Assembly: GCA_977017645.1 (NCBI GenBank)
Contig: OZ360227.1
Span: 55,924,001 to 55,988,000, forward strand
Direction of reading: 5' to 3'
DNA: 64,000 bases
From: Torpedo marmorata
Lineage: Eukaryota
Numbering within the stretch: the stretch's first letter is position 1; the number at the start of each line of letters is the position of its first letter. Below are positions 829-59,344 of this stretch, piece by piece. The notes under the pieces were generated by a model. It saw nothing but the letters and a program-made list of their open reading frames with translations. It searched no databases and had not been told where the DNA came from. A program made the translations under genes and the position numbers.

Positions 829-1009
829 ACGTAGCAAAATCCCACAGGTAGCAATATACCAATCACCCTAATATGTTAATTAAAAGTGGGAGCAGTCTTC
901 TTTCCTGCCCAACACCCCCTCCCCCTACGTCCTTTTCTTCTTCATCCATCTGCGTTTAAAAGTCTAATCCAATAAACAGCAACCCATCAAGCTTCTTAGA
1001 ACTGCTTCC

Positions 1010-1634
1010 TCTACTTCCTCAGGAGTTTACGGAGGTTTGGTATGACACCAGAAACCCTGGCAAATTTATACAGAGGCGTGGTGGAAAGTGTGCTGACCGG
1101 CTGCATCACGGTCTGGTATGGAAACACCAATACCACTAAGCGTAAAGCCCTCCAAAAGGTAGTGGACACAGCCCAGAACATCACAGGCAAAACCCTCCCC
1201 ACTATTGAGAACATCTGCAGGGAACGCTGTCGTCGGAGAGCAACAGCAATCATCAAAGACCCACACCACCCAGCACACGCTCTGTTCTCACTGCTGCCAT
1301 CAGGAAAGAGGTATAGGTGCCACAAGACTCGCACCACCAGGTTCAGGAACAGCTGCTACCCCTCCACCATCAGACTCCTTAATGACAAAGTCAATCAGAG
1401 ACTCATTTAAGGACTCTTGTGCACTTTATTGATTTTCTTTTGTTCTCTCTGTATTGCACAATCAGTTTGTTTACTTTCATTAACCGTTGACAGTTCTTTG
1501 TTTGTTTACATGTTTACGCTGTGTACAGTTTATTTTTGTGTGGTAATTCTGCTGCCTCCGCAGGAAAAGGGAATCTCAGGGTTGTATGTGATGTCGTGTG
1601 TGTACTCTGACAATAAATCGGAAATCTGAAATCA
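1010..1634 (+). mobile_element. Rex1/Babar-type LINE, 3' fragment with tail
   Basis: ORF 1042..1410 (ESVLTGCITVWYG...KDPHHPAHALFSLLPSGKRYR...RFRNSCYP) is homologous to the C-terminus of 45885..46640; tail ends gacaataaa plus short repeats. Confidence 0.85.
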
Positions 1635-2058
1635 GAACTGCACTGATCACAACAGTGCAGATTTAGAATCACAGTCACACAGCACGGAACAGGCCCTTCG
1701 GCTCAACTCGTCATTGCCATCCAAGTTGGCATTCTGGGCTGGTCCGATTTGCCTGCATTTGGTCCATATCCTTGAAGCCCTTCCTGTCCATAGATCTGTC
1801 CAAGCGAACTTTGAACGTTGCAATTGTATCCACTTCTGTAGCTTCCCCTGGCAGCTCGTCCCAGATATGGAAAGCACTCTGAGTGGAAAAAGTTGCCCCT
1901 CAGGTCCCTGTTTCTTCTCTGCTCTCTAGTTCTACCCTGGGAAAAAGACTGAGCATTTACTTTTTCTATCCCCCCACACCCCAGGGAATAAACATTAGCT
2001 TATCCAGCCTCTCTCTGTACCTCAAGTCCCAGCAACACCCTTTCCAACTCAGTGTGGT

Positions 2059-2800: not shown

Positions 2801-3160
2801 CTTCAAGGTTCCTTTTATTGTCACGTAATAATACATTAAAAATGTAACATACTTTTAACTATTGCTTGCCATAAGGCAGACAAAGAGTCGCCATTAGTAT
2901 TGCCCGGCGCCCCTTTCTGAGTGTCGGTGAATTTTCCTCCAGCGCTCCCGCAGCCTCTGCAGCCGCACAGACTCCTGTTCGATCCTTCGGCAACCCGAGC
3001 TCCAAGTCCAAACGTCCGATATGATCAGGAGGCCTTCAGCGCCCAAGGCCCTTCGGGAGCCCTTCTTGCCCTCAGCACCCTCTTGTATCCCAGGTCCAAG
3101 ACCTGGCTCCCATGAGCCAGTGTCCAGCAGCACATGCAGGTCCCCCAACCGCATTGCCTC
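2801..3160 (-). mobile_element. 5'-truncated copy of the CpG-rich non-autonomous retroposon
   Basis: Similar to the tail halves of 40176-41009 and 48866-49680. It interrupts a CR1 fragment that resumes near 3161. Confidence 0.75.
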
Positions 3161-6011
3161 TCCGAGTGTGATCTCACCAATGCCTTGTACAGCTGTATCA
3201 TGATGTCCCAACGTTTGTACTCATCATCCCGCCCAATGAAGACAAGTGCCAAACAACTTCTACACCATCCTTTACACTTTCAGGGAACTATGCACCTGTA
3301 TTCCTTGCTCTCTCCTACAACACTCTCCAGGGCTCCACCATTTACTGTGTAATGATAATGGTTTTATTGTTATATACATCCTACAGTGTACATATACACT
3401 GAAATTCTTACATGCTGCAGCTGAACAGGTACTTGGTTTAAAAAAAAAAGCTTACAAAACAACGAAAAAAAGGCATACTAAATACTTAGGTAATTGAATT
3501 AAAAAGACAACAAATGCACAAAAATAAATAAATATTCACAGTTCTTGTGCAAACAATGTCCAGCCCTGTGCTATTTTGAGCCATCCATGAACTGAACCCA
3601 CTACCTTTTAATTTAGAAATGGAACAATCAGTGCATAAACCACATCTGATACCTGCTGATGAATAAACCACAGCAGAGCAATGGGTATGATGTCAGTGCA
3701 AACTTTTTTCACGTGCCGCAATCCTGACCTTCACCTCCAATTCGCAGGGGTAGGATGGGGGAGTTCCAGGACTGGTAGGTACCATAGGGGCTTGAGTGAT
3801 AATTGTATTATAATTCGAATGTGTAAATACTGTGTAACTGCAATACTCTAATATTATATTAATGTGATTTTTTTTGTAATCACTGAACCACCTTTGTAAA
3901 AGGGAAAAAAATTCTCACACTGTTATCTCTTTCACAGATACAGGTATCACAGAGGGTAAAGAGAAAGGATAAAAAAGACTGAAATATTAATCAAACTTTC
4001 ATTAACTCCAACTTTATTTTTCCCCTAAAACAAACGACAAGAACAAAAAATAGAAGACAGAAATGCTTTTCATAAATACCTACTTTTCATTTCTCTTTTT
4101 ATAAAATCTCAAGACTTTTGCAAAATATAATACATACAAAGTTTTAAACTATATAAAATGATGATGATAGGCAAAGTCAAAATTAACTTAGGTCCTGGTG
4201 TAAGGAGCTGAGATACGTTCATGAACTATGTACAAATTGCTGGTTTGAGTATTGAGCTGAGAAATCATTCAGGTATAAATAAACTTGCAACAAACCCGTA
4301 TTCAGCTAGAAATACTTATAATTATTTACATTCATTATTCAGAAAAAAATTACATTATTCCTGAAGACTTTTTTGTGCCATAGACTCCAAGGAGGACAAG
4401 CATAAATTAAACATCTTAAATGTAAATTACCCTGCCATTCCACTTCAACCAATCGTGGCCTGGGTCGCCATCTCTTTGGAGGCCTTTAAAGATGTTATTT
4501 CGGAGCAGTATTTCAGAAATGCAACATGGAAATATCTTAGAAAATATTGCAGTTGCTGCGATTAATTCCATTGCTTCGAAACAGGCTGCAGTTCAGCTGG
4601 ACAAAATGCAGAGCAACTGAGTTGAGGGATAGGTGCAGTGACTGTTCAGGTAGCTTTCACCATGTACTGAGCTTTCAAAAACAGGCTATCAGACTTTTAG
4701 TAAAAACACAGAAAGCATCTCGTTTTCTGGATGCGAGGTGGCTCCAAAAGATGTTAGTTGGATGACCATCGCCTGCCTACATTTTGCTCATACCTTGAGG
4801 AAGGCCCGAAACGTTGGTTGTGTATCTTTATCGTTGCTACACTGTTTGACCTGCTGAGTTTCTCCAGCATTGTGTTTTTACTTTTCACCATATCTATTGT
4901 CATGTTTGGGGGGGAGGTGGTGGTAAATACGAACTATGCTTTGAGAAGGGTGACCTTGCAGAGGGCCTATCACATCCAGCAGAGGGGTCATTGAATTAAC
5001 ATCCACTCTAAACCACGGCACTACTGACTGTACGGAACTCCACTCGGGGCCTAGATTGGGTGCTGAAGTCTTCAGGCTGGTGAAATTGGACCCACAAGCG
5101 CCAGCCTCGGAGGTGAAAGTGTGACCAACTGACTCACAGCTAAAACAAACACCAGCTCTTGGGTCGCTCGCCTCTCTCAGCATGAAGCAGCAAAGCACAA
5201 ATACAGAGAGAGAGCACAGAGTGGGCAAGCACACAAGGGTCAGGGAGGAGGAGGTTTCCATCAAAAAAGGGTGCAGAGGTTATCAAGGATTTCACATCAG
5301 TGTCGAGGCTAACTGCAGTGACAGCAGAGCTCACATTTGGGCGACGCCGACTCGTGGACCTGTTACTGTGCTGTAACTCTAAATTAAAATAACTTCACAG
5401 ACGGGGGTCAGAAACACTCCCATTTGGCAGTGTGAAGGACACGGGCATGCACAGTAACACAGAAGCAGGAGCAGACGGTACAATGCCTTGCCCCACCATT
5501 CAACCACAGCCGACTTTCTCTCCCTCAGCACCACTTTCCTGTACGAACCCCACTGACATCCTTAACATCTACAGATTTAACTCAAACATAACGACAGGAT
5601 CCTGTTGATTACCTATCTTTTTCAACCTCATTCTCCTGCCTTCTCCCCATAACCCTTCCTTCTAATCAAGAACTCCCTCTATCTTAAATCTACCCAATGA
5701 CTTGGCCTCCACAGCCGAATGCAGCAACGAATTCCATAGATTCACCCCCTCTGGGTAAAGCAATTCCTCCTCATCTCTGTTCTAAAGGGATGTTTTTGTA
5801 TTCTGAGGCTATGCCCTCTGGTCCCAGACTCCTGCACCAGAGAAAACATGTACCTCCACATATTGAAAACTGGCCACATCAGGGATCCATCGGTGAATCT
5901 TCACTACATTCCCTCTATTGCAAATATATCCTTCCTTACGTAGGGGATCAGACCTGTACGTAATATCCCAGGTGTTGTTTCACCAAAGTCCACAACTATA
6001 GAGCAAAACTA

Positions 6012-9667: not shown

Positions 9668-9916
9668 TCTCATAGCACTAATAGCCTGAATACGACTGGG
9701 ATTGTCTGATCTCGGAAGCTAAGCAGGCACAGGACTGGTCAGTACCTGGAGGGGAGACCGCCAAGGAACACCAGGTGATGTAGGTTTCTGTGAGGGGTGC
9801 TGGACAAAGTAGCGACTCTCTTGTCTGCCTTACGGTAGACAACAATTAAAGAATTTCATGTATGTTACATTCTAAATGTAGTGTTACGTGACAATAATGG
9901 AACCTTTACCTTTACC
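9668..9916 (+). mobile_element. 5S rRNA-derived SINE (SINE3-type) with Rex-like tail
   Basis: 9668-9787 is colinear with vertebrate 5S rRNA (gtctgatctcggaagctaagcagg...gggagaccgcc...tgtagg), keeping A- and C-box-like motifs. It is followed by about 130 bp shared with the CpG-rich retroposon tail, ending gacaataa and (ccttta)n. Confidence 0.8.
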
Positions 9917-10349
9917 CAGTCCATTGGCACATGACCATGGAAACTAAAGATTTCAAGGATACTTTCTTTCCTGCTGTTGTCAGGCCCTTGAACGGACTTT
10001 TATTAGTAAAAGATGCCCCTTGCACTGTTTAACTGCACTTTTCTCTTTAACATTATACACTTCACCTTTGTTTTATTCTACCACTATCCTTTGCACCTTT
10101 CTCTTTATTTTGTACTATCTGCTGTATTATGTATCGGTTAACCTGCATGCAAAACAAAGTTTTTCACTGTATCTCAGTACACAAGACAATACACAAATCA
10201 ATTCAAGTGCTAACTCTACCCCTCTCTCCCAGTGTGATGTAAATGGGAAAGTTCTGTCGCAGGCCTCATAAAATAAGGTTGTTATTAATCTTTTACATTG
10301 AATATTTCCATCGCCCTTTGAACATGTTTTGACCTGATTCTCCCTCAAG

Positions 10350-24060: not shown

Positions 24061-25960
24061 ATCTGTCACGTGCGTTTGGCACTCGTACAGGTTTTTTAAG
24101 TACGATGTCTGGAAACTTTGAAACTCTAAACCGGACATCAGTAGTCTGGTTTTTAAATAGAAGTCTGTGTCTTTTCCCTTCACCAACCTTGCAGGGCAAC
24201 TGGTTGTTCAAAGTTATTCTGGTCTGCAATGAATTTTTCATTATTAGCAAAGCAAACATCAGTTATCAGCGCATAAGTCATGGCTCTCTCAACAGATTCA
24301 GAGCAGCTATTTTTGGCAATCTTTGAACCTTTGAGTAAACTGCTCGTAAATTCTAGTTATCTTTTGTTTTAGATTAAAACATTCCGTCGGGGCAGATGGA
24401 GATGGTTCTGCTGTAATAAAGGAAAGCTCTTCCTTGGAACATTGAACCTCTCACACATGAAACACCTACATTTGCACCTTTAACAAAGTAAAGAAAAAAA
24501 ACGTTTGAATGAGTGACGTCTTTTGGGACGTCAGGGAGCAGTTTAAAACCGTGAAGTAATCTTGAACAATGAGTTTGTGTGGTCTTCAAGTAGGTGCCTA
24601 ATCGGAGAAGATCCACTTCCATTACGGGCACGGAACTCTCCTCCACTGTGTTAGACGCTGCCTGAGGAAGGCAGCCAAAGTCATCGGACCCCCCATCACC
24701 CTGGTCACAACTTTTCTCACTGCTCCCTTCAGGAAGTCCGATTTCCGGCACCTCAAGGTTCAATAATCGGTTTTAACCAACAGCTCTGAGGTTCCTGAAC
24801 CTCCCCGTACTATCGTAACCATCACCATAAACGACTCCACAGACCAGAACCATCAAAACCTGCACGCCTGAAACGTCTTGCACCGACTGCAACGTGTATA
24901 TTTATTTATATTTTTATATATTTATTATCTCTTCTCTTTTTCTGTCTTGGCATATTGTGCTAATTTAATTTGTAGTATTAAAATTATGTTCCTGTTTGTT
25001 TGTAGTAAGCACTAATTTCGGTGCATCTGCATATTGTTCATTTTATTTATTTCAGACTTATTGTCAGAGTACATACATGACACATCACATATAACCCTGA
25101 GATTCTTTTTCCCGCGGGCGAGGCAGAATTACCACTTATTGGTAGTGCATGTAAACAAATAAAGAAATGTGAACAATCTGCAATACAGAAAGAGAAAAAA
25201 TCAATAAAGTGCAAAAGTAAGAATCCTTAAATAAGTCCCAGATTGAGTTTGTTGTCGAGGAGTCTGATGGTGGAGGGGAGTAGTTGTTCTTGAACCTGGT
25301 GGTGCGAGTCTTGCCTCTTTCCTAATTGTACTAATGTGTCTGACAATAACCTCTCATCTCATCTCAGGATTTGACAACGGGCTGAAGGAGAGACTGGACA
25401 GTCTAGCACTTTCCATGGGACAGAGGAGGCTGAGGGATGACCCCCTCCCAATGAAACCAGGAGGGGCAGAGATAAGGTGAATGGTTACAGTCTTTTCCCC
25501 AGGGTAGGGGAGTTTAAAACCTCCCATAGGTTTAAGGTGAGGGGGAAAGTTTTAAAAGGGACCTGGGGGACAACTTTTTTTAAACACAGAGGTTGGAGGG
25601 AAAATGCAACGAGCTGCCAGAGGGAGTAGCAGAGGTGAGGACGATCACTACATTTAAAAGACATTTGAATAGATAAATCCAACTCATCAAACCACTGTAT
25701 CACGCACCATCACTGAACTCCTCACTTCCGGTCACCTCCCTGGCACGGCCTCCAACCTTATTGTTTCCCAACCCCGTACCACCCGTTTCTACCTCCTGCC
25801 CAAGATCCACAAACCCAATTGCCCCGGCAGACCCATCGTGTCCGCGTGCTCCTGCCCCACCGAAATGGTCTCCGCTTACCTCGACTCTGTTTTGTCCCCC
25901 CTGGTCCAGTCCCTCCCCACCTACATCCGGGACATTTCACATGCCCTCCATCACTTCAAC

Positions 25961-33338: not shown

Positions 33339-33418
33339 ACACTAGCTTTTAATTAGCTTTACAAAAGGAATGCCTTAAACCAAACTGGGATTCCTTCAAT
33401 TACCAAGATGGATTTTGA

Positions 33419-33442: not shown

Positions 33443-34717
33443 ATTTGTTACAAATTCAAACCAGCAATGACAGAAGACGCAATGCAAAAGGGGTAAAATT
33501 GAAATTACTATTTATTAAAACAATTAAACATATAATTTCACAACAATATAACCATTATAAACGTCTATAACACTATTCTTATCTAAAAGGTGTGTGTGTG
33601 TGTGTGTCAAGCCCAGACCATTACAGTCTGTGCCCAAACCCTTTTGTAAAAATGGAAAAACTTTCCCCAAAAACCCCAGGTCAGTCATAAAAAACAAGTC
33701 AGTCAAAAAAAAGAATAATACAGTCCACAAAATCCACTCTCTAAGTTCAGGCTTCAAATTCAGCTGTGTCTGGTAGAAGTACTTCTGAATGAACGTTGGA
33801 GAGAGACAATGACTGTTTATGCTTACAAATACTTGTTTTCTTCTCTGATGACGTCCCCTTCTTGTATGTTCATAAGAATTGCAAGTTCCAGATCAGTATA
33901 CCACTGCTTTAGGCGTGTGCTTGAATCTCACAGCTAGTCTCGCTGATCTCACGCCTGTTCTCCACAGAAGTTGCTTTTTCTCAGAATTTCTGTCTGAGAC
34001 AGGAGGCCATGTGCTCTTCTGCCAGTCTTTTCTCTGACTGCACACAAGCCTGGATCTGGCTGTGTCCTGTAGCCTTTGCAACTCACAACTGACTGTCTGC
34101 TTCTTGCAGAGATCTGCACCTGCTTTTGCAAAAGTGAAACAAATGTATCTTGTCCAGTCTGTCTGTCTCTCTCTGGTCTCTCTCTGTCTGGGTACACCAA
34201 GAGTGCAACAATGTATCTTGTCTGGGTACACCAAGTAGGTGGGGAAGTTAACTCTTTCAGTACCTGGCCCCAGTGTATACTCCAAAAGACTTCATCCTTC
34301 CTGCTGACCGTCCGCATTCTAAATGGTCAGTCATGGTCCATAACACCCTCTCCGCCTTCCGCAGGGACCGCTCCCTCGTGACTCCCTTGTCCACTCCTCC
34401 CTCCCCACCAATCGTCCCCTTGCCACCTACCCCTGTGACCGCAGGAGATGCTCCACTTACGTCCATACTTCCTCAGCATCATTCGGGGCCCCAAACAGTC
34501 CTTCCAAGTGAAGCAACATTTCACTTGTGAATCTGCAGGGGTCATCTACTGCATCCGGTGCTCCCGCTGTGGTCTCCTCTACATCAGAGAGACTGGACGC
34601 AGACTGGGAGATCGCTTCGCTGAGCACCTCGGCTCTGTCCGCCACAATAGCGTGGATCTCCCAGTGTCCGCCATTTCAATTACCCATCCCATTCCCTTGC
34701 TGATACGTCTGTTCATG

Positions 34718-34766
34718 ACCGAATTTCATGACTTGTTCATGACAATAAATTCTGATTCTGATTCTG
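34718..34766 (+). mobile_element. 49-bp Rex1-type tail-only insertion
   Basis: accgaatttcatgacttgttcatgacaataaattctgattctgattctg matches the end of the LINE at 46750-46792; flanked by atg/atg. Confidence 0.85.
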
Positions 34767-35699
34767 ATGGTCTCATGTTCTGCCAGACTGAGACCACCCG
34801 TAAATTGGAGGAACAACACCTCATCTTCCGGCTGGGCACCGTCAAACCGGATGGCATTAATATCGACTTCTCTGGCTTTCGTTAAACCTCCCCCCCCCAC
34901 CCACTTCTTCGCTCGTCGCCTTCCCCAGCCTGTCTCTCCATTCCGTCTCCTTTCGCACAGACATGATAAATTCTACCTAGTCCCTTATCACATCCAATTA
35001 ACATCTTTTTTGGTCTGGATTCCTCCCCCATTGTTTGAATTCTGAGACTTTCTGAGATTTCCTGCTTCTGGCTCATTCTGCTTATTCCTTGAAGTAGGGC
35101 TCAGGCCCGAAATGTCAGCAGTATATCTTTGTCTCCTACAGACACTGAAAAACCGGCTGAGTTCCTCCAGCATTTCAGTGTGTTTTTACTACAATCACAG
35201 CATCTGCAGACTTTCGTGTTTCACTCTGGATAGATAAATAGTTCAGGAAGATCATAGAGTCGTAGACTTGCCCACACTGACCAAAATGTCTCATCTGCCT
35301 GTGTTTAGCCAATATTTCTCCCATCCTATCCATGTTTCTGTCCAATATTTTTTCTTAAACGCTCCAATAGTACCTGCCTCAACCACCTCCTCCGGCAGCC
35401 TATTGCATACACCTGTACATTGTACTGACGTGTATGACAAGAAACTCTCATACTTTTCACACAAGAGAACACATTCAATTCACAAGCCTGACTGCTGGAT
35501 ATCTGTCACGTAAGTCCTCTATTTATGTACAGTATGTATTATTTAATATAAATACTGTATGATAGGAGAGACTGTGATGTCTCTAGCTTAAGCCACTTAC
35601 CATCCAATAAAGCTCTACATAACACAAGGAACAGCATCTCATCTTTAATCCAACCATTCACAAACTTCCCACCTGATCATGTGACTGAACAACTTCAAA

Positions 35700-38123: not shown

Positions 38124-38898
38124 AAGATTCAAATTCAAAATTATTTTTATTGTCATGTAATAATACAGAAAATGTAATATTACATGAAATTTCCTTTTGC
38201 CTGCCGTAAGGCAAATAAAGCGTCTCCATTAGCATTGCCCAGCGCCCATTACAGTAAGCGAAAGAAAAGTTAAAGAAATTCCCTCCACAGACACTGAGTG
38301 TCCATGGATTCGCCTCCAGCGCTCTCACAGTCTCTCAGGCAACCCGAGATCCAGGTCCAAACATCCGATACGATCAGGAAACATTCAGGAGCCCTTCTTG
38401 CCCTCAGCACCCTCTGGAATCCTGGTTCCGATACCTGGTTCCCATGAGCAGTCTCCAGTAGCCTGCAGCCTGTGTGAGTTCTTCGACCACAAGTTGCCTG
38501 CCGCCCGAAGCCTGTGTGGGTCCTTCAGCCGCTGAGCCCCTCGCTGGTCCGCTGCCGTGGTCACCGTTCTGTAGGCTTTGTATCCTATGCTTCTCCTTCT
38601 CAACAGGGGGTGTTCTAACTGTTTCCTGGTTCGCTGCTCTCCTGGAGTCTGCAACCCCTCATGGTGCGCTGCCCAGCACAGGTGCTGCCATCTTGGGCGC
38701 AGACACCATGGTTGCAGGATTTTTAAAAAGTACTTTCGGTTCCTTTAACAGGCTGCTTAAAGCCTGTTTGGAGCCGTCGCCATCAGGACCAGGTAGTAGG
38801 ACCCTGTGGAGCAACGCTGTGTCTCCGCTCCCTGCTCTCCTGGGTCCACACCAGTGGCAGCGCTCTCGTTACAGCAGCTCTGGCAGCCCCGCCATTTT
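38124..38898 (-). mobile_element. CpG-rich non-autonomous retroposon, older copy
   Basis: Colinear with 40176-41009; starts AAAATGGCG and ends catgacaataaa plus short repeats. Confidence 0.8.
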
Positions 38899-39113: not shown

Positions 39114-39214
39114 GCCTTTCCCGTTATGGCTGGGCTGTCAAATTTCCATCTTCTTGCTTTTCAGTGTATGTCATTATAAACCTTGTTCCCTACTTGTTGA
39201 TTTGTTTCCTGCTG

Positions 39215-39870: not shown

Positions 39871-40175
39871 CTGGCATCTGATTTAAGCAGGCACAACTTC
39901 AGAACTGAAGGCCGTTCACTTAGAACAGAAATGCGTCGGAATTTTTTCAGCCAGAGGGCGGTGAATCTGTGGAATTTGTTGCCACAGGCAGTTGTGGAGG
40001 CCAGGTCATTGGGTGTATTTAAGGCAGAGATTGATTGGTTCTTGATTAGTCAGGGCATCAGAGGTTCTGGGGAGAAGGCCGGGCAGTGGGACTGAGTGGG
40101 AAAATGGATCAGCTCATGATTAAATAGTGGGGCAGATTCGATGGGCTGAATAGCCTATTTCTGCTCCTATGTCTT

Positions 40176-41009
40176 CAAGATACAAGATTCAATTTATTGT
40201 CATGCAATAAAACAGTGTCATATTACACGAAATTCCTTTTGCCTGCTATAAGGCAGACAGATTCGCCATCGGCAGAAATTGCCTGAAGCGCCTCTTACAG
40301 ACAGAGAAAGAGAAGCAAAAGAGAGTCCCCCCAGAGTCACCCAGTGTCCATAGATTCGCCTCCGCAACCACACAGAGTCCAGTCCAAACCATCGGCAACC
40401 CGCGCTCCAGATCCGAACCTCCGACACGGTCAGGAACCCTTCAGCGCCTTCGGCACCCCCTCGCATCCCGGTTCCGATACCTGGTACCCCTTCAGCCAGT
40501 TTGAGCCAGTCTCCAGCAGTCCACAGCCCGATGTGAGTCTCCCGACAGCAGTCTCCAGCAGCCCACAGCCTCCACGGGTTCCTCGCCTCGAGTCGCCAGC
40601 AGCCCGCCGCACGCATTGGTCTTTCAGCCGCAGAGCCCCCTCACCGGTCCCCCCCGCTGTGGTCACCGTCCTGTGGGTCGTCTCCTCTGCTTCTCCTTCT
40701 CAGACGGGGGATGGTCTCCCCGTTTTCTGGTGCCCTGCGCCAGTCCTCCGCTCCCCTGGAGTCTGCAACCCTTCGTGGCTGCTGCCGATCAGAGGCGCTG
40801 CCATCTTGGGTGCAGACCCCGCGGTCGCGGGATTTTAAATAAAACTACCGTCGGCTCCTTTAACGGGCCGTTCAAAGCCCGTGCGGAGCTGACAGCAGTC
40901 GACTGGGCAGTTGGACCCCGCGGGAGCGCTGTATCTCCGCTCCTCGCTCCCCGCGGGTCCGCACCAGCAGCAGCGCTGCCGTTACAGTGGCTCCGACAGC
41001 ACCGCCATC
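40176..41009 (-). mobile_element. CpG-rich ~830-bp non-autonomous retroposon, apparently full length
   Basis: Starts GATGGCG, has internal CAAGATGGC, no recognisable protein domain, Rex-like stem-loop tail and short aatcttg-type terminal repeats. Confidence 0.8.
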
Positions 41010-42009
41010 ATTTATGGTCTTATAGTCTAATTCTAGATGTGCTTCTAACCCCACATATTCTTTGACATCAAAACAATGCCCATATCCTTACCTCCATTCA
41101 TCTGCTGCTGAAACCCTCAATCACCATTGTATCCATCAGAAATGACCCTTCCAGTTTGAAGAATTTTATCCCAACTTGCACAAATTATCCCATAAGCATG
41201 TTGACTAACATTGGTTCCAGGTCTGGGAATACTCATTTTAAATTCTCATCTTTGCATTCAAATTCTTGTGTGTTGCTTCTGCCTCCCTTGTGACTTCATT
41301 TAGCCCAACAATTCATCAAGATCTCAGGATTGCCACTGCCCATTTACACTAATCCTGCATTGGTCATCATTTTGTATTCTCCCCACATTCATATTGACTC
41401 CCCCAGATTCTACCGCTCACCTACAGACTAGGGCCAATTTAAAGTGGTCAATTAACCTACTCGTTTTACTCATTTCATTTATAAAAGACCCAAGGTTACA
41501 GGATACCGTTCATCAATCTCACAGCCTGCTGGAAGAAGCGATTTCCCAGCCTGGCAGTCCTGATTTTGATGCTCCTGATGCTAGTCGGTCAAAGATACTG
41601 TGTGCTGGATGGTAGGGATCCTGAATAATTCTTTGAGCCCTTCTCTTCCATGCAGGATTGGTTGGTGCAGAGGAGTTGATTATGGGTTGGTGGTTGGAAG
41701 TGGATATCCTCGCTAATTTCACTTTCTGCATACTTCATGAGAACATAAGCCTGCTCCGCCATTCAACATGATCACGGCTGATCTGGCCGTGGACTCAGCT
41801 CCACCTACCCGCCTCTTACCCATCACCCTTAATTCCCTGACTGTGGAAAAATCTACTTGTCTGTATCTTAAATACAGTTAATGAGGCAGCCACTACCACT
41901 TCCTTGGGAAGAGAATTCCACAGATTCACCACTCTGGGAGAAGCAGTACCTCCTCATCTCCATCCTAAATCTACACCACTGAATCTTTTTCAATTAAAAA
42001 AAAGGTGTA

Positions 42010-42221: not shown

Positions 42222-42959
42222 GAGCTATGTCCCTGAGTTCTAGTCTCACCTACCAGCAGAAACAACTTTCCTGCTTCTATTTAATTTATTCCTTCTTTCA
42301 TTTTATGTTTCTATAAGTTCCCCTCTCATTGTTCTAAACTCCACCAAGTATAGTCTGAGGCAACAATCTCTCCTCATAGGCTACCCACCTCATCTCCAGA
42401 ATCAACTTGGTGAACCTCTTCCGCGCCACCTCCAAGGACAGTATATACTTCGAGAGAGAAAAAAAAACGTGCCTTCATTTTCTACGGAAGGTAAACATGG
42501 GAGTTAATTTATGCACAACAAGCTTCCATGAGCAACAAATTGATAACTGCCAAATTAAATGTTATTCTGCACAAACTGAGAGAAAAATATTGGACAGGGT
42601 AATGGAAGGTCCCGACTCTGCACCCACGGTACCATCAGGGGATCTTTGATGAGGCATGAAAGATGACACGTCTGAAAATGGAGTGATCCCTTTCACTCGT
42701 GCAATGGGAACAGCGGCCCAGATTATGCACTTAATTCTTTTGTTTGGGTTTAAACTCAACCATGCAACTCAGAAGTGAAAGTGTTAACCACAAAGGCCCA
42801 TTTGTTCCAACAACTTGTGGAAGAGCTACAAATTATAAAGGGAGGTACTTGGAATGACTGAGGAATGACTCGGTTTTAATGGATACATTTTGAGAATCAA
42901 GGGAATAAGTGGATGTTGACAGGGTGTCCATTGTGGCAGTAACACCAGCTGGTGCTAAA

Positions 42960-43547
42960 TGTACCTGGGAGGTGACCTATCGTGGACACTCCACATCTCC
43001 TCGCTTGTCAGGAAGGAGCAACAGTGACTGCACTTCCTGAGAAGACTGAAGCGGACAAGGCTACCGGCCACCATTATGTCAACCTTCTATAGGAGCTCTA
43101 TCGAGAGTGTCCTGGCCGGCTACATCACAGTGTGGTACGGTTGCTGCAGAGAAATGGATCGGAGGTCAATCCACAGGAAAATAAAAGCGACGGAGAGGAT
43201 CACTGGGGTCTCCCTTCTCCCCAACCTCCCCCATTGATGTGATTTACTGAGATCATTGTCTAAAGAGGGCTCGCAAAATCAGGGAGGACCCCTACAACCC
43301 CACACACAGAATCTTCCAGCTACTCCCGTCGGGAAAAAAATACAGAGTTATGAGAGCCAGAACCACCAGGCTGAGAAACAGCTTCTTCCCACGGGCAGTG
43401 AGACTGCTGAATGACTGCTAAAATAACTCTCTGTGACTTTACTATTTATTAATAATATATATATGTACTGAATATGAATATGTCTGTATGTGTGTTTGCA
43501 CTGTTCTGCACCGAGGACTGGAGAAGACAGTTTTGTCGAGTTGACAA
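42960..43547 (+). mobile_element. Degenerate Rex1-type 3' fragment; tail completed after the solo LTR (44444-44465)
   Basis: FYRSSIESVLAGYITVWYG...FQLLPSGK...RLRNSFFP; the tail aataaacttgaacttgaa follows the LTR. Confidence 0.75.
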
Positions 43548-44443
43548 TGTTACAAATTCAAACCAGCAACGACAGAAGACGCAATGCAAAAGGGGTAAAA
43601 TTGAAATTATTATTTATTAAACACAAGTAAACATATAATTTCACAACAATTAACCCCACTATAAACGTCTATAAATTCTATTCTTATCTAAAAGGTGTAT
43701 GTGTGTGTGTGTAAAGCCCAGACCATTACAGTCTGTGCCCAACCCTTATGTAAAAATGGAAAAACTTTCCCCAAAAACCCCAGGTCAGTCATAAAAAACA
43801 AGTCAGTCAAAAAAAAGGATAATACAGTCTACAAAATCCACTCTCTAAGTTCAGGCTTCAATACAGCTCTGAGTCTGGTAGAAGTACTTCTGAATGAACG
43901 TTGGAGAGAGACAATGACTGTTTATGCTTACAAATACTTGTTTTCTTCTCTGATGACGTCCCCTTCTTGTAGGTTCATAAGGATTGCAAGTTCCAGATCA
44001 GTATACCACTGATTTAGGCGTATGCTTGAATCTCACAGCTAGTCTCGCTGATCTCATGCCTGTTCTCCACAGAAGTTGCTTTTTGTCAGAATTTCTCTGA
44101 GACAGGAGGCCATGTGCTATTCTGTCAGTCTTTCTCTGACTTTGCACACACCTGGATTTGGCTGTGTCTTGTAGCCTTGCAACTCACAACTGTGTCTGCT
44201 TTGCAGAGATCTGCCCCTGCTTTTTGCAGAAGTGAAACAAATGTATCTTGTCTAGTCTGTGTCTCTCTCTCTGGTCTCTCTCTGTCTGGGTACACCAAGA
44301 GTGCAACAATGTATCTTGTCTGGGTACACCAAATAGCTGGGGAAGTTAACTCTTTCAGTACCTGGCCCCAGTGTATACTCCAAAAGACTTCATCCTTCCT
44401 GCTGACTGTCCGCAGTCCAAATGGTCAGTCATGGTCCATAACA
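43548..44443 (-). mobile_element. Solo LTR, Gmr1-like family
   Basis: TGTTA...TAACA with TSD ACAA (43544-43547 and 44444-44447). Confidence 0.95.
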
Positions 44444-44574
44444 ACAAATAAACTTGAACTTGAAGTGTCTTGATTCAGTGCTGGTACTTTTGACTTGCTT
44501 CTCATTTGTCTAAATCAAGAGGTACATGGAGAAGAGCAAGGAGCAAGATAAATAACTTTACAGTGCTTCCATCA

Positions 44575-46795
44575 GGCCAACACATCACATGCGAGACCAG
44601 GGGAACCAACACACTCGACCACTGCTACACCACCATGAAGAACGCATACCGAGCAATACCACGACCGCACTTCGGCAAGTCTGATCACCTGGCTGTACTT
44701 CTACTCCCGGCGTACAAGCAGAGACTGAAGACCACAGCACCAGCGGTGAGGACGTCAAAGGTATGGTCGAGGGGGGCGGAGGAGCGTCTGCAGGACTGCT
44801 TTGAATCGGTGAACTGGAACATATTCAAGAACTCATCCATAGACCTGAATGAATATGCAACAGGTGTCACCGACTTCATCAAGAGCTGCGTGGATGAGTG
44901 TGTGCCCACGTGCAAATACAGGGTGTTCCCCAACCAGAAGCACTGGATGAATCAGAGAATTCGCAACCTGCTGAGGGCAAGAACAAGGGCGTTTAAGGCC
45001 GGGGATCGGGATCTTTACAAGAAGTCCAGGCACGACCTGCGGAAGGCCCTCTCTAAAGCAAAGTGGCAATTCCGGAGGAAGCTAGAGACAGAGACAGATA
45101 CACGCCAGCTATGGCAGGGAGTGCAGGCCATTACAGACTACAAAGCGAGGGCGAACACTATAGACAGCTGTGATGCTTCACTACCCGATGAGCTGAACAC
45201 CTTCTATGCCCGATTTGAGAAGAAGAACCAAACAGTGCCTACTAGAATCCCTGAAAAGGCTGAGGACCCTGTGATATCTGTCTCTGAGGGCGACGTCAGA
45301 ACATCATTCAAGAGGGTGAACCCTCGCAAGGCGTCAGGCCCTGACGGCGTACCTGGCAGGGTACTGAAAATCTGCGCCAACCAACTAGCTGGAGTGTTCA
45401 CGGACATTTTCAACCTCTCATTGCGGCAGTCAGAGGTTCCCACCTGCTTCCCGGTACCCAAGAAGAGTAGTGTGAGCTGCCTCAACGACTACCGCCCAGT
45501 AGCACTAACCTCTACTGTGATTAAATGCTTTCAGAGGCTGGTCATGGCCAGAATTAACACGAATCTAAGCAAAGATCTGGACCCACTGCAATTCGCCTAT
45601 CGTCATAAACGCTCCACAGCAGGTGCAATATCACTGGCTCTCCACTCAGCTCTGGATCACCTCGAAAACAACAATTCATACATACAGCTGCTCTTCATCG
45701 ACTACAGCTCGGCCTTCAATACCATTATTCCCTCAGTGCTGGTCAAGAAGCTACAAACTCTAGGCCTCTGTACCCCACTCTGCAACTGGATCCTTGACTT
45801 TCTCATCGGAAGACACAGTCAGTACGAATTGGAAACAACGTCTCCTCCTCACTAATTATCAACACAGGCGCACCCCAAGGATGTGTGCTTAGCCCATTGC
45901 TCTACTCGTTATACACCCATGACTGTGTGGCCAGGCACAATTCCAATGCCATCTACAAGTTTGCCGATGACACCACAATTGTCGGCAGTATCACAAATGG
46001 CAATGAGGAATCGTACAGGAGGGAGATAGATCAGCTTGTTGAATGGTGTAATGACAACAACCTCGCGCTCAACGTCAGCAAAACCAAGGAAATGATTGTG
46101 GACTTCAGGAGGAAGTCAGGGGAACACGACCCAGTCGTCATCGAGGGCTCAGTAGTGGAGAGGGTCAAGAACTTCAAATTCCTGGGTGTCAACATCTCCG
46201 AGGATCTGTCCTGGAGCCTCCACGTTGATGCAATCACAAAGAAGGCTCGCCAGCGGCTATACTTTGTGAGGTGTCTGAGGAGATTTGTTTTGTCACCGAA
46301 GACTCTCGTAAACTTCTACAGGTGTACCGTGGAGAGCATTCTGGCTGGTTGCATCACTGCCTGGTATGGAGCTACCAATTCTCAGGACAAGAATAAACTC
46401 CAGAGGGTTGTTAACTCAGCCTGTGACATCACAGGCACCAGACTTCACTCCATCGAGGACATCCACATGAGGCGGTGTCTTAAAAAAGCAGCCTCTATCC
46501 TCAAAGACCCCCACCACCCAGGCCATGCCCTCTTCACTCTGCTTCCATCGGGAAAAAGGTACAGGAGCCTAAAGGCGAGCACTCAACGGCACAAGGACAG
46601 CTTCTTCCCCGCTGCCATCAGATTCCTGAATAATCAATGAACCAAAGACACTGCCTTACTTTTCGTGCACTATTATTTATATTTTTTTTATAGTAACATC
46701 ATAAGATGGTTATAATATGAATGTTTGCACTATGATGCTGCCGCAAAACACCGAATTTCGTGACTTGTTCATGACAATAAATTCTGCTTCTGAAA
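44575..46795 (+). mobile_element. Rex1/Babar-type LINE, 5'-truncated, end of APE plus RT, one frameshift
   Basis: TLDHCYT...HFGKSDH, KASGPDG, NDYRPVALTS, DYSSAFNTI, PQGCVLSPLLYSLYTHD, KFADD; ORFs 44506..45855 and 45885..46640. Confidence 0.9.
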
Positions 46796-48160
46796 TCAAT
46801 ACATTTAGAAAATGTTCATCAAATAATCATCCTTGCTAATGTAACAAATATGTGTTTATTCAGCCCTGGAGAGATAAGGGTGTTTCTCAGAAGAATTACA
46901 AAACTCTGATTCATCACCTGAAATCAGAGGGATACGGATACAGACATGAAATAATAAGTGGGTGCTGGTACAAGCTGGCAATGGGAGTCGAAGTCCTTCC
47001 ACGTTAGTTCCAGCACTTTTAACTCTTTCAGAAGATTGTTAGGGTGCTGTCAGTCATAGAAAGACACAGCACAGAAACAAGCCCATTGAGTCCATGCCTT
47101 CAACAATGATACACCAATCCCATTTCTTTTTCTCCCACATTCCATTTTTTTCAAAAATATTTTATTTTCATTTTTAACAAACAATGAAACAAGATACTTC
47201 AAACACAGATATCACATTATATAGTAATACAATAAAAGTAACATATATAATAAAAAAAACCCAATTACCCCAAACCTCCCCCCACAAAGAAAAAACAAAC
47301 TAAACAAAACAAATGGTCGACAATGTTTATATAATTACTAATTTCATATATATAAAAGAAAGAAAAACTCCAAGGATTCCCGGCAACAGGGAAGGAACCC
47401 AAAACAAATTAATAGCAAATCTTCTTTAATTTAATTTATCCTGACCCCAAATAATCTAAATAAAGTTGCCAAATTTTATAAAAAATAACCTTTGTTTTTA
47501 ATGTTTTATGTAATTTTCTCCAATGGAATACAACTATTTATTTCTGAGGTCCATCTATCAATAGACAATGGGGAATCTGACTTCCAAGTCGTCATTAAAC
47601 ACTTTCTAGTCACACAAAAAGCTATCCCCAAAAATATAATTTGATATCTGGTTAGGGTGTCCTTAATAGTAGTAAAATTTCCCAAAAGGCATATCTCTGG
47701 ATCTAAAATTAGAGTAACTCCAATAACTTTAGATAAGATGTCACAGAGATTATGCCAAAATTGTCTCAGTTTACAGCACATCCATGTTGAATGTAAAAAA
47801 GAACCAACCTCCGTTCCACATCTAAAACACATCTCTGATAATTCTGGTTTAAATTTATGTAATTTCTGTGGAGTCAAATATAATTGATGAAGAAAATTAT
47901 AGGAGACCAATCTATAACGTACATTTATAGTAATTAACATACTATTCTGATACAATTCTGACCATAATTCTTCATCAATTAGTATACCTAAGTCTGATTC
48001 CCATCTTATCCTGGACTTATTATGTCTCAATTTAGGCTCTTGATCTTGTAACAATAAGTACATTCTCAAAATAAATTTATACGTATTTCCTTCTTGAAGT
48101 ATTTTTTTCCGCATCTGTCAATGAGGGTAGGACCATATCAGGTCCTAAAGTATTCCTAAG

Positions 48161-48838
48161 TGTAAGAGCCATAGGCTCACTACTTACCCGATGTTTTGGC
48201 CGTGGGCGCCGGCGGTGTTCCGGGGCCCGTGGGCCTCTTCCATTAGGCTGCACGTGCGAGTGCCGCCACCGCTTGCGGAGCTGGAGGGTGGCGGCGCTCG
48301 CGTGGTTGGCTCGGCGGCGGCGGCTTCGGCCGGGGCCGGCGTATCCATCAGTGCACATGCGCACTGATGGACTGGGTCGACGCGTGCGCGGTTGTCTCGG
48401 CCCCGGCGGCGAGCAGTTGGAGCCGGGGCCAGCGCGTGTACTACGGAGCATGCGCGGGTGGGACCTGCGCGTTTAAATGGAGGTTCCCCCGCGCGAGTCG
48501 ACAGTTGAAAACCTGAGGAGGGTGAGTTGGGTGGACAATTCCTGTCGACCGTTTTGACATCGTTTAACATCGTTTAGGATCGTTTAATACTTTTGGAACT
48601 CGTTTAACACGTTTAGGAACACTTTTTATAACCTTTTAAATCGTTTTAGATCTTTTTACATTATTTTACATCATTTCAAGAAATGTTTATATTAAAGTCT
48701 GAAGATGACTGCAAGTCTAATGTAAATAAAGGTTTTTTGAACATTTTGGACTTTGTTGGTAAATGAATGAAAACGCGTCGCAGACAAACACCTAACTTAG
48801 CCTCCAAGCGACTATTTTTATTGGACGAAGTCGCTACA
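48161..48838. mobile_element. Solo LTR of a second, unrelated family (678 bp)
   Basis: TGTA...TACA termini with 5-bp TSD CTAAG (48156-48160 and 48839-48843); excision restores the L1 frame YFQLRLYLRNTLGP. Confidence 0.85.
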
Positions 48839-48865
48839 CTAAGATATAAACGTAACTGAAAATAG

Positions 48866-49680
48866 CGGCAGCGCTGCCGCTGGTGCGGACTCGCGTGGGA
48901 GCGGAGATACAGTGCTCCCGCGGGGTCCAGCCGCGCAGTCGACTGCCGTCGGTTCCGCACGGGCTTTGAACGGCCCGTTAAAGGAGCCAACAATGGTTTT
49001 ATTTAAGATCCCGCGACCGCGGGGTCTGCGTCCAAGGTGGCAGTGCCTTTTATCCGGCAGCAGCCACGAGGGGCTGCAGATTCCGGGGAAGCGGAGGACT
49101 GGAGCAGGGCACCAGAGGACGGGAAGATCACCCCCGTCTGAGAAGGAGAAGCGGAGGAGACGACCCATGGGATGGTGACCACGGCAGCGGACCGGTGAGG
49201 GGATCTGAGGCTGAAGGACCAGTGCACGCGGCGGGCTGCTGGCGAGTCAAGGCGAGGAACCCGCGGAGGCTGTGGGCTGCTGGAGACTGCTGTCGGGGGA
49301 CTCACAACGGGCTGCGGACTGCTGGAGGCTGGCTCGAACTGGCTGGAGGAGTACCAGGTATCAGAACCGGGATGCGAGGGGGTGCCGAGGGCGCCCTGAC
49401 CGTGTTGGAGATTCGGATCTGGAGCTCGGGATGCCGATGGTTTGGACTGGACTCTGTGTGGCTGCGGAGGCTGCGGAAGCGCTGGAGGCGAATCTATGGA
49501 CACTTGGTGACTCTGGGGGGACTCTCTTTTGCTTCTCTTTCTCTGACTGTAAGGAATGTTAGAGGCGCTTAGGCAATTTCTGCCGGTGGCGAATCTGTCT
49601 GCCTTGTAGCAGGCAAAAAGAAATTTAATGGAATATGACACTGTCTTATTACTATGACAATAAATTGAATCTTGAATCTT
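48866..49680 (+). mobile_element. CpG-rich non-autonomous retroposon, slightly 5'-truncated
   Basis: Highly similar to the reverse complement of 40176-40981; ends gacaataaattgaatcttgaatctt. Confidence 0.85.
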
Positions 49681-54190: not shown

Positions 54191-54918
54191 TCAGAATCAG
54201 TATTAGAATTTATTGTCATGAACAAGTCATGAAATTCGGTGTTTTGCGGCAGCATCATAGTGCAAACATTCATATTATAACCATCTTACAACAACAATAT
54301 AAAAAATATAAATAATAGTGCACGAAAAGTAAGGCAGTGTCTTTGGTTCATTGTTCATTCAGGAATCTGATGGCAGCGGGGAAGTAGCTGTCCTTGTGCC
54401 GTTGAGTGCTCGTCTTTAGGCTCCTGTACCTTTTTCCCGATGGAACAGAGTGAAGAGGGCATGACCTGGGTGGTGGGGGTCTTTGAGGATAGAGGCTGCT
54501 TTTTTAAGACACCGCCTCATGTAGATGTCCTCGATGTAGTGAAGTCTGGTGCCTGTGATGTCACAGGCCGAGTTAACAACCCTCTGGAGTTTTTTCTTGT
54601 CCTGAGAGTTGGCGCCTCCATACCAGGCAGTGATGCAACCAGCCAGAATGTTCTCCACGGTACACCTGTAGAAGTTTCCGAGAGTCTTCGGTGACATACC
54701 GAATCTCTTCTGACACCTCACAAAGTATAGCCACTGGCGAGCCTTCTTTGTGATTGCATCAATGTGGAGGCTCCAGGACAGATCCTCGGAGATGTTGACA
54801 CCCAGAAATTTGAAGTTGACCCTCTCCACTACTGAGCCCTCGATGAGGACTGGGTCGTGTTCCCCTGACTTCCTCCTGAAGTCCACAATCATCTCCTTGG
54901 TTTTGCTAACGTTGAGCA
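54191..54918 (-). mobile_element. Rex1-type 3' fragment
   Basis: Closely similar to 46068-46792, in reverse orientation. Confidence 0.9.
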
Positions 54919-55753
54919 CAAAGTCCCAACCTGTTTAACCTTTCCCTGTAACTCAGTTCCTGAAGTCCGGGCAACATCCTAGTAAATCTTCTCTGCATTC
55001 TTTCTATCTTATTGATATTTTTCCTGTAGTTAGGTGACCAAAACTGCACACAATACTCCAAATTTGGCCTCACCAATGTCTTATACAACTTTAACATAAC
55101 ATCCCAACTCCTGTACTCAATACTTTGATTTATGAAGGCCAATATGCCAAAAGCTCTCTTTACAACCCTATTCACCTGTGACACTACTTTCAGGGAATTA
55201 TGTATCTGTATTCCCAGATCCCTCTGTTCTACCGCACTCCTCAGTGTCCTACCATGTCCTTTCTTGGTTTGTCCTTCCAAAATGCAACACCTCACACTTG
55301 TCTGCATTAAATTCCATCTGCCATTTTTCAGCCCATTTTTCCAGCTGGTCCAGATCCCTCTGCAAGCTTTGAAAACCTTCTTCGCTGTCCACAGCACCTC
55401 CAATCTTAGTGTCATCTGCAAACTTGCTGATCCAATTTACCACATTATCATCCAGATCATTGATATAGATGACAAACAACAATGTTCCCAACACTGATCC
55501 CTGAGGCACACCACTAGACACAGACCTCCAGTCTGAGAAGCAATCATCCACCACTACTCTCTGGCTTCTCCCGTCCAGCAATTGTTGAATCCAGTTCAAT
55601 ACTTCACCATGAATACCTAGTTTTTGAACCTTCCTGACTAACCTCCCATGTGGAACCTTATCAAAGGCCTTACAAAAGTCCATGTAGACAACATCCACAG
55701 TCTTTTCTTTGTCAACTTTCCTGGTAATCTCCTCGAAAAACTCTATAAGGTTG

Positions 55754-56618: not shown

Positions 56619-59344
56619 GTTGGTTAAACACGACCTACCATACACAAAGCCATGTTGACTATCCCTAATCAGTTTCTGGATATCCAAATAATTGTATATC
56701 TGATCTCTTAGAACACTTTCCGATAATTTACATACTACTGATGTCAGGCTCACCGGCCGATAATTTCCAGGTTTACTTTTGGAGCCTTTTTTAAACAACG
56801 GAACAACGTGAGCTACCCTTTAATCCTCCGGCACTGCACCCGTGGCTAAGGACATTTTAAATATTTCTGCCAGAGCCCCTGCAATTTCTACACTAGTCTC
56901 CCTCAAGGTCCGAGAGAATATCTTGTCAGGCCCTGGGGATTTATCCACCCTTATTTGCTATAAGACAGCAAGCACTTCCTCCTTTTTAATTTGTATAGGT
57001 TCCATGACCTCACTGCTTGTTTTCCTTACTTCTCACGACTCTGTGCCTGTTTCCTGAGCAAATAATGATAAAAAAACATTTAAGACGTCCCCCATCTCTT
57101 TTGGCTCCATACAAAGCCGACCACTCTGATCTTCAAGGGGACCAATTTTGTTCCTTACTATCCTTTTGCTCTTAATAAACCTGTAGAAACCCTTATGATT
57201 TTCGTTCACATTGTCTGCCAAAGCAACCTCATGTCTTCTTTTTGCCTTCCTGATTTCATTCTTGAGGTTTTTCTTGCATATTTTATACTCCTCAAGTACC
57301 TCATTTGCTCCATGTTGCCTATACCTGCTATACACTTCTCTTCTTCCGAACCAGATCCCCAATATCCCTTGAAAACCAAGGTTCCCTATGCCTGCTAACC
57401 TTGCTTTTCATCCTGACAGGAACATACAAACTCTGTACTCTCAAAATTTCACCTTTGAAGGTCCTCCACTTACCTCACACATCCTTGCCCGAAAACAACC
57501 TATCCCAATCCACGCATTCTAAATCCTTTCTCATTTCCTCAAAATTGGCCTTTCTCCAATTTAGAATCTCAACCCGAGGCCCAGACCTATCCTTCTCCAT
57601 AATTAACTTGAAACTAATGGCGTTATGATCACTGGACTCAAAATGTTCCCCTACACATACTTCTGTCACCTGTCCTGTCTCGTTCCCTAATAGGGGATCC
57701 AGTATTGCACTCTCTCTAGTTAGTACCTCTATATATTGACTTTAAAAACTTTCCTGAACACATTTGACAAACTCCAAACCATCCAGCCCTTTTACAGTAT
57801 AGGAGTCCCAGTCAATATGTGGAAAATTAAAATCCCCTACTATCACAACCTTGTTTCCTGCAGCTGTCTGCTATCTCTCTACAGATTTACTCCTCCAATT
57901 CTCGCTGACTATTGGGCGGTCTATAATACAACCCCATGAGTGTGGTCATACCTTTCCCGTTCCTCAGATCCACCCATATAACCTCAGTAGACGAGCCCTC
58001 TGGTCTGTCCTGCCTGAGCACAGCTGTGATATTTTCCTTGACAAGTAATGCCACTCCTCCCCCTTTCATCCCCCCCGTTCTATCATGTCTAAACCAACGG
58101 AAACCTGTGATTGTCAAATTACAATGGCAGCACTTGGCTTTTAAAATACTCACACCTGTTTTAAAATCCTTCCGCATCACTGCCCCTCCCTTTCTCAGTA
58201 ACCCCCACCATGCAGCAGCATATCTGCACAGTTACACACCCCTGACCTCCCTGCCCAGAAACTAAAATCCTAACCCCTGGAATTCCATCTCAGAGAGATT
58301 TAAGTCTGCATTGCCTTCCTTCTGAGCAACCTTTTGATGTGACTTGCCTCAACATCTCCTTCTGTGGCAGTTCATCAAATTTGTTTAACTCTCCAGTGGT
58401 TAAGCTAGTAGAGCCACTGCCTCACACGTCCAAGGGCCAAGGTTCAATCCTAACCTGAGGTGGTGTCTGTGTGGAGTTTGCACGCTCTCCCTGTGACCAC
58501 GTGGTTTCCTCCCACATCCCAAAAATGAGTAATGTATGTGCTGAGAGTTCATTGTCATTTACATAAGTGCACCGTACAGATGCACTGAAATTCTTACTTG
58601 CTTGAACCACATTATCGTCGGACGAAGATACACTGACGATAGTGGCATAAACTAAATTACCACAATATGCCAATAAGCAAAAGAGAGGATAAATTTAAAA
58701 GGATAAACAGATAAATATTCACAGTTGCAGCTAGTAAAGGAAAAAAAGGGACGCTTCAATAGAGCGGACAGATCTTTCGGTGATCCTGGAGTAGTTTCTG
58801 GTTAGGATTAGGGTAGTACGGGAGATTCAAGAGTCTGATAGCTGTTGGATAAAAACTGTTCTGAACCTGGAGATGCAGGTCTTCAGGCTTCTGAACCTTC
58901 TGCCCAAATGGTGCAGTGAGAACAGGTTGTGACCAGGGTGATTGGACGTCCTTTATGATGTTGGCTGCCTTCTTGAGGCAGTGTCTCACATAGATGTCTT
59001 CAATAGATCGGAGGCTAACACTTTCTGCAAACATCTTTTGTGTGTTTAGAACTATAGAACCTTAGAACATTACAGCATAGAAAACAGGCCCTTTGGCCCT
59101 TCTAGTATGTGCCGAACTATCATTCTGCCTAATTCCACTGCCCATTCCATATCCCTCCATACCCCTCCCATCCATGTTCCCGTCCAAATTTTCCTTTAAT
59201 GTTAACATTGAGCTCACATTCACTTCAGCTGACAGCTCATTCCACACTCCCACCACTCAGTGTGAAGACGTTCCCCCTAATGTTCCCCCTAAACATCTCT
59301 TTTTTCACCCTTAACCCATGTCCTGTGGTTTAATTTTTTAATTT

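Follow-up and report, generated by a model that had tools for sequence, protein, structure and literature searches.

The window, that is, the whole 64-kb stretch of DNA analysed here, is repeat-rich vertebrate DNA, with repeat types that suggest a shark or ray. A Frizzled gene lies on the minus strand at 21052-22833; its uninterrupted reading frame spans 594 codons and encodes Fz and Frizzled domains. An LTR retroelement (27706-34347, minus strand) carries SCAN and zinc-knuckle domains, in-frame stops and an integrase placed ahead of RT/RNase H, an order that we take to be Gmr1-like. A second, partial copy of this element runs from 61241 to the end of the window, and copies of about 900 bp, several of them solo-LTR-like, are found at 25961-26832, 43548-44443, 55750-56622, 59655-60525 and 61241-62140, with a partial one at 217-647. 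A minisatellite with a unit of about 98 bp occupies 13866-14604.

The LINE from which this analysis started, designated here Rex A, is a 5'-truncated element of Rex1/Babar type at 44494..46795 on the plus strand, with one frame break near 45810 and a stop codon at 46638-40. The coding part (44494-46640) contains RVT_1 and PF09004 domains, and its match begins near residue 259 of a 969-aa ORF from an outside locus. The search for protein relatives of this LINE returned 5968 sequences, and both domains were present in 118 of the 120 relatives listed. The pair RVT_1 and PF09004 together with the structure of the end presumably identifies the element as Rex1/Babar, an assignment made with no match named Rex1 and with an ORF2 tree that holds no named Rex1 sequence. 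Loss of the apurinic endonuclease is described as frequent in Rex1 LINEs in passages of PMC6274825. The element ends in a conserved 3'UTR end followed by an oligonucleotide repeat: its tail (46753..46793, plus strand) opens with GAATTT at 46753-58, continues with an upper stem that spans C46759 to G46773 around a short loop and with ACAATAAA at 46774-81, and closes with a degenerate TTCTGA-type repeat.

Further copies of Rex-type LINEs are scattered over the window. A second, 5'-truncated Rex A copy (54197..54925, minus strand) is 94% identical to the first. A 52-nt Rex A insertion at 34715..34767 (plus strand), which is missing from the paralogous repeat near 11257, consists of the hairpin, ACAATAAA and three repeat units only, as would be expected if copying starts in the repeat beside the hairpin. 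A second subfamily, Rex B, is represented by two 3' fragments, at 1009..1635 on the plus strand, with a CAGGG/CTCTG stem and an AATCT flank, and at 25049..25313 on the minus strand. Another Rex-type tail (3355..3420, minus strand) has no ORF within 1.5 kb upstream, and a further Rex family at 58545..59013 (minus strand) retains an ORF C-terminus, a 3'UTR and a decayed tail. In the region 43520-44465, a solo LTR (bounded by TG...CA) interrupts a Rex-type tail at ACAA, and the ACAA on both sides of it forms a 4-bp duplication.

At 9668..9915 on the plus strand lies a SINE with a 5S head. The head (9668-9786) corresponds to the Rfam 5S_rRNA family (RF00001, model positions 1-120) at 42.8 bits, compared with a gathering threshold of 38, and is joined directly to a tail of about 115-130 nt in common with the CpG-rich family described below; similarity to the CpG-element tail starts within a few bases of the end of the head at 9786. 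This tail is LINE-related, being composed of a Rex-type hairpin and a repeat. The SINE sits within an older Rex ORF remnant, which resumes after it (9915..10200, plus strand) and has a decayed tail of its own. A DeuSINE, of the type of OS-SINE1 and zebrafish SINE3, would carry a Deu domain between head and tail; the layout seen here leaves no space for such a body. On sequence grounds, the 5S SINE is 5S RNA joined directly to the tail of the CpG family. It is present in one copy in the window and may be a one-off chimera of 5S RNA and tail.

The CpG-rich element occurs in four copies of up to about 830 nt, with a CpG observed/expected ratio of 0.57-0.87 against 0.45 for the window. A full-length copy (40174..41010, minus strand) starts with ATGGCGG at 41008 and ends in TTGAATC-type repeats; a divergent full-length copy (38128..38897, minus strand) starts with ATGGCGG at 38895. 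The copy at 48860..49680 (plus strand) is without the first 25 nt or so and is 85% identical to the 40174-41010 copy, and the fourth copy (2805..3160, minus strand) is 5'-truncated and has the tail closest to that of the 5S SINE (77% over 96 nt). A 74-bp minisatellite at 2059-2800 begins right at the 3' end of a CpG-element copy. The element carries no tRNA or Rfam head: ARAGORN predicted 0 genes, and the six Rfam matches obtained at E<=5 over 38000-50000 were all far below gathering. No A/B-box-like match was found in its first 260 nt. The element was rejected as a tRNA-derived SINE on account of the missing tRNA head and of internal TTTT runs. A coding role was likewise rejected: indels between the copies are frame-breaking or of mixed frame in 49 of 59 gaps, and the longest sense frame had no protein relatives among 5975 longer and 1302 near-length candidates, which is weak evidence.

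Contig depth was available for four runs over 45700-49800; all four consist of contigs and two are presumably RNA, so that they are uninformative on expression. In run X1, depth dropped about 4000-fold between the bins flanking 46796, just where Rex A ends. The summed depth in the same run, which gives no copy number, was far higher over Rex and the CpG-rich element than over 48166-48576, and it rose toward the 3' end of the CpG-rich element. Among the joints and loose ends listed, none links the CpG-rich element to a Rex ORF. A repeated element at 47070-48165, which adjoins Rex A, had raised depth in all four runs, and its minus strand contains an open frame of 203 codons that matches no Pfam family.

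The initial annotation had quoted five tails of similar make-up from these LINEs, the SINE and the CpG-rich element, and all five are present as written (46753+, 40235-, 9851+, 1571+ and 25105-, the sign giving the strand). The element labels that it had attached to them proved correct as well, in view of the LINE domains, the 5S_rRNA head and the raised CpG ratio, and the stem change that it had reported for a second Rex subfamily, CAG/CTG instead of CAT/ATG, is real. A relaxed scan of the 64-kb window revealed further copies at 34721+, 54237-, 38192-, 49620+, 3407-, 58593-, about 10165+ and 2850-, the last with a partly deleted anchor. A strict motif, defined as AAT(T/C)T, five anchored pairs and GACAATAA, matched eight times in the window on both strands; across 300 dinucleotide resamplings it turned up 0.007 times on average and at most once. 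With a core motif this short and rich in A/T, unrelated elements might in principle have come by a similar end through chance or convergence. This explanation is extremely improbable in the face of eight matches against 0.007 expected, of a motif that always takes the 3' end of an element with a microsatellite next to it, and of a SINE tail that is 77% identical to a CpG-element copy over 96 nt. Several mobile-element families of this window thus end in one common hairpin, as predicted for their RNA.

The same end was found well outside this genome. An alignment of 29 ORF2 sequences led to 57 outside loci, 54 from metagenomes and three from genome contigs, which presumably represent host DNA. 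Of these, 37 reach the C-terminus with at least 120 nt beyond it and could be assessed, and 28 of the 37 end, by inspection, in (A)TTT-C, a stem, and G-ACAA(A)TAAA; a clear tail was not found in the other nine. Further sequence follows the tail in 27 of the 28, mostly a repeat of 5-8 nt, the exception (L037) being cut by the contig end. The common outside end can be written as AUUU-stem-ACAAUAAA-microsatellite. Because 28 of 37 outside loci share it, the tail is, as far as comparison of sequences goes, the general 3' end of the Rex1/Babar-type LINE clade and not private to this genome. The ORF of one outside locus (L007) is 82% identical to Oncorhynchus proteins, and those of L003 and L004 are 78% identical to a Xenopus protein. 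Three loci (L055-L057) place a vertebrate-type Rex LINE in prokaryote genome records, presumably through host contamination. In viral contigs, two protein scans and one DNA pattern found nothing. Two outside loci have a second short Rex-type tail just downstream of the first (L016 at 3073 and 3268; L026 at 3677 and 3741), which resembles the 52-nt insertion of the window.

The structure of the tail was examined in 38 sequences anchored by sequence motif only, 12 from the window and 26 from outside, the latter obtained after L004 and L016 had been dropped as duplicates and L037 as cut off, and L026 had been added. The letters TTT, C, TG and ACAA are near-invariant among them. The span between the anchors varies from 13 to 40 nt with no common loop sequence, and pairs 0, 1 and 2 of the upper stem are kept in 36, 37 and 35 of the 38 tails. 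Covariation was assessed by our own tree-aware simulation, rather than by R-scape, on the ORF2 tree of the 30 ORF-linked tails. Pair 2 occurs as U-A in 23 tails, as C-G in four and as G-C in two, with one mismatch; it is thus paired in 29 of 30, where the null model gives 21.8 on average (P=0.0003), and same-branch changes number about 3.5, compared with 0.6 under the null (P=0.006). It is the only pair that passed the pairing test, and four slid controls showed no pairing enrichment (P 0.33-1.0). One of these controls, L2-R3, likewise showed an excess of same-branch co-change (P=0.013), and the G-test as the sole measure of covariation was rejected because slid controls were significant too; since the controls are raised in both co-change and G statistics, only the pairing measure discriminates. 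RNAalifold, applied to a separate MAFFT alignment of 26 tails, returned one helix of seven pairs, four of them with two-sided changes, and left ACAAUAAA / CAAUAAA unpaired. Folding of single tails was modestly better than that of shuffled sequences (z from +0.65 to -3.2, with 3 of 11 below -2). Deeper pairs were discarded (pairs 3-6), as pairs 3-5 reach 36-38 of 38 only when a one-base 3' bulge is allowed per sequence, which is circular.

The upper-stem hairpin is real and covariation holds there. By the tree-aware pairing test, one pair of a structured 3' end is thus kept by compensatory change, as in LINEs of the stringent type. Of the covarying stem-loop put forward in the initial annotation, the upper stem stands on this one pair; its lower stem, in which no pair covaries, does not. 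As a separate observation, one extra 3' base after the third stem pair, mostly U, improves pairing in L001-L003, L006, L007, L011 and L056 and likewise in the window tails 58556-, 3371- and 10185+, the register having been chosen by pairing. This extra base is reminiscent of the hinge of UnaL2.

The lower stem matters for a second proposal, in which the tail folds into a two-part stem, a bulged ACAAU between the two parts is the element recognised, and all tails belong to one network around the Rex A LINE. A bulged ACAAU needs a lower stem to close it. Such a stem is indeed predicted for Rex A with a probability of 0.7-0.9, its partner extending into the first repeat unit, and a bulge and a mismatch do matter in eel UnaL2 (PMC1636434). 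The first three lower pairs (UUU with AAA, U-A or U-G) are possible in 32 of 38 tails. They hardly vary, although one outside tail has C-G there: the middle U is replaced by C in four tails, with A as the partner in three, both Rex B copies included, and G in one. Beyond this the lower stem fails. All six pairs are possible in only 3 of the 38 tails, all of them Rex A, and five pairs in 5; 10 of the 38 pair at position -4 and 15 at position -5, and the predicted lower pairing probability exceeds 0.5 in four tails. None of the lower-stem pairs tested on the 30-tail tree covaries (P 0.25-0.91), and the lower stem is absent from the RNAalifold consensus of 26 tails. A lower stem that is complete in 3 of 38 tails, broken in Rex B and without covariation argues against the ACAAT bulge as the recognition element, and we infer that ACAAUAAA is better described as a single-stranded flank with, at most, a weak three-pair U-A clamp. 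The companion claim that the apical loop is not what is recognised holds up: the loop varies in length and sequence and the conserved letters lie at the base of the stem, which favours recognition at that base.

The kinship of the tails bears on the network part of the same proposal. Scores were computed over the last 110 nt and compared with a background of 26 outside tails (26±5, with a maximum of 36 for the SINE tail). For the 5S SINE tail, the scores are 108 and 95 with two CpG-element copies, 58 with the remaining two, 32-37 with Rex B and 22-23 with Rex A, the last of which lies inside the background. Two CpG-element copies (c41 and c48) reach 43-56 with Rex B, where the highest background values are 44 and 40, and 28-41 with Rex A. 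Rex A is thus no nearer to the tails of the SINE and of the CpG-rich element than unrelated Rex tails from outside are, so that a single network around this LINE was an overstatement, and the proposal of a bulge and a network centred on Rex A is, as a whole, very unlikely. None of the LINEs that have an ORF in the window comes close to the SINE or CpG tail, and a Rex-B-like family, other than Rex A and not present with its ORF in the window, is the likely partner LINE. An upstream hairpin said to recur among these elements is predicted in the 5S SINE and in the CpG-element copies; the prediction is weak for Rex B and negative for Rex A. Among the outside tails, this hairpin reaches z<=-2 in 1 of 26.

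The origin of the CpG-rich element itself deserves separate consideration. It combines a LINE 3' end with the absence of a protein, as do bipartite non-autonomous LINEs, and it may be a Pol II-type bipartite derivative of Rex1. Two copies begin at the same ATGGCGG, and a similar start, (A/T)TGGCGGCGC, ATGGCTGCC or ATGGCTCCC, lies 160-440 nt upstream of the ORF at 9 of the 16 outside loci in which the N-terminus is present. The missing tRNA or Rfam head, internal TTTT runs that argue against Pol III, and the non-coding nature of the element (49 of 59 gaps in mixed frame, no protein relatives) point in the same direction. However, the shared start comprises only about 7 nt and ATGGCGG is found at five places in the window, a search of the 57 outside loci with the 700-nt body gave no match (best E 0.13), and the leaders of outside Rex elements are shorter and T-rich, the full-length Rex elements compared being those of other hosts. 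That the element, instead of being a parasite with a borrowed tail, arose by internal deletion from a Rex1 family not seen here, as a bipartite copy bringing together the 5' and 3' ends of that family, is therefore conceivable but on the unlikely side. Full-length outside Rex-type elements start with (A/T)TGGCGGCGC or ATGGCT(G/C)CC followed by a GCAGC-type stretch (L009, L010, L013, L016, L017 and L026; L001-L004). Open ORFs of about 960-980 aa are present at some of the outside loci.

With a probability of roughly 0.78, our analysis favours a hairpin tail that is clade-wide in Rex1/Babar and is likely bound at the base of the stem by the ORF2 protein, which probably also copies the SINE and the CpG-rich element in trans. 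The hairpin would sit between the conserved AUUU and the conserved ACAA(A)UAAA, just ahead of a short microsatellite, and the Rex1 ORF2 protein, to judge from stringent LINEs, would bind the tail at the stem base. On the model of eel UnaL2, priming of reverse transcription would take place in the repeat. Both the 5S SINE and the CpG-rich element would be passengers copied in trans by Rex1 ORF2, and the SINE might have originated when 5S RNA was joined to the last 115 nt or so either of the CpG-rich family or of a partner LINE that the two have in common. A longer chain of events, in which ORF2 reads the flanks and not the loop, unlike in L2, and this tolerant signal allowed a CpG-rich, Pol II-type bipartite derivative to spread and then to donate its tail to 5S RNA, giving rise to a SINE3 without a body, is speculative and appears rather doubtful.

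The conserved letters at the end of the tail allow another reading. The main reason for keeping AAUAAA could be polyadenylation, with Pol II transcripts ending a few repeat units further on and the hairpin alone serving as the signal for ORF2. Cleavage takes place 10-30 nt downstream of the hexamer, which would fall within the microsatellite, and AATAAA is intact in 31 of the 38 tails. Yet none of the 38 tails has an A7 run within 30 nt, the clean repeat, detected in 18 of 31, begins 0-8 nt after the hexamer, and ACAATAA is retained in the 5S SINE, which is presumably transcribed by Pol III; moreover, the conserved G-A-C-A ahead of the hexamer and the AUUU flank are left unexplained. We regard polyadenylation as the main role of the hexamer as somewhat improbable. 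A dual role is compatible with the favoured model of a tail bound by ORF2 at the stem base, and the hexamer may also end Pol II transcripts.

The outside locus with the Oncorhynchus-like ORF (82%) carries the same hairpin motif, and the salmonid LINE RSg-1 is presumably itself a member of the Rex1 clade. In salmonids, HpaI, SlmI and the 5S-headed OS-SINE1 are paired with RSg-1 (passages of PMC3747384 and PMC5135761), and RSg-1 resembles the present case in that one LINE tail is common to several SINEs, one of them 5S-derived. OS-SINE1 is listed there as a DeuSINE, whereas in the SINE described here the 5S head runs straight into the tail. A further difference is that the CpG-rich element, the second passenger in this window, starts with neither a tRNA nor a 5S head. 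In Nematostella, SINE2-5_NV is likewise paired with a Rex1 LINE, Rex1-24_NV, but it has a tRNA head and its host is a cnidarian (passages of PMC3747384). For Rex1 itself, passages of PMC6274825, in which the word 'stem' does not occur, describe a conserved 3'UTR followed by an oligonucleotide, and in Rex1/Babar this conserved end and oligonucleotide repeat are as in the tails reported here. The initial annotation had suggested an undescribed system. The clade-wide distribution of the motif, together with the conserved Rex1 3'UTR end (PMC6274825) and the shared salmonid tails (PMC3747384, PMC5135761) that stand in print in these passages, speaks against this: sharing of a LINE tail by passengers is already known from salmon, and no new kind of system is involved.

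Similarities extend to other LINE clades. In eel UnaL2/UnaSINE1 and zebrafish ZfL2, which have stringent L2 tails, a 3' stem-loop and a terminal short repeat are both needed for mobility (PMC5135761, PMC1636434), and both features are found in the tails described here. For eel UnaL2 the loop is suggested as the contact (PMC5135761) and a bulge and a mismatch are required (PMC1636434); the suggested contact in UnaL2/ZfL2 is the loop GGAUA, whereas here the loop is unconserved and the conserved letters flank the base of the stem. Vertebrate SINE3 families use CR1-clade partners and bird SINEs with GC-rich heads are mentioned in passages of PMC7245038, and elephant shark SINEs have L2 tails according to passages of PMC5499810. 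Bipartite LINEs and the bird SINEs with GC-rich heads are like the CpG-rich element in being short and non-coding and in having a LINE 3' end and no Pol III head (passages of PMC5786205 and PMC7245038). In the passages of PMC5786205, bipartite elements are reported only from RTE, Ingi, Vingi and R2, so that Rex1 is not among the four clades; the bipartite origin of the CpG-rich element is putative.

Our literature search, which had Repbase and Dfam outside its scope and does not establish absence from print, found no paper that draws the Rex1 hairpin or describes either passenger. Possibly new are the non-coding CpG-rich element of about 830 nt with a Rex1-like 5' start and the short 5S SINE, which is too compact to accommodate a Deu body. 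If the 5' part of the CpG-rich element is Rex1-derived, Rex1 would be the fifth LINE clade reported to make bipartite elements. The motif itself, AUUU, a hairpin with a free loop, ACAAUAAA and a microsatellite, provides a short and testable Rex1 3' signal, with which orphan repeats of fish can be traced to a Rex1 carrier and a first mobility assay for Rex1 can be designed.
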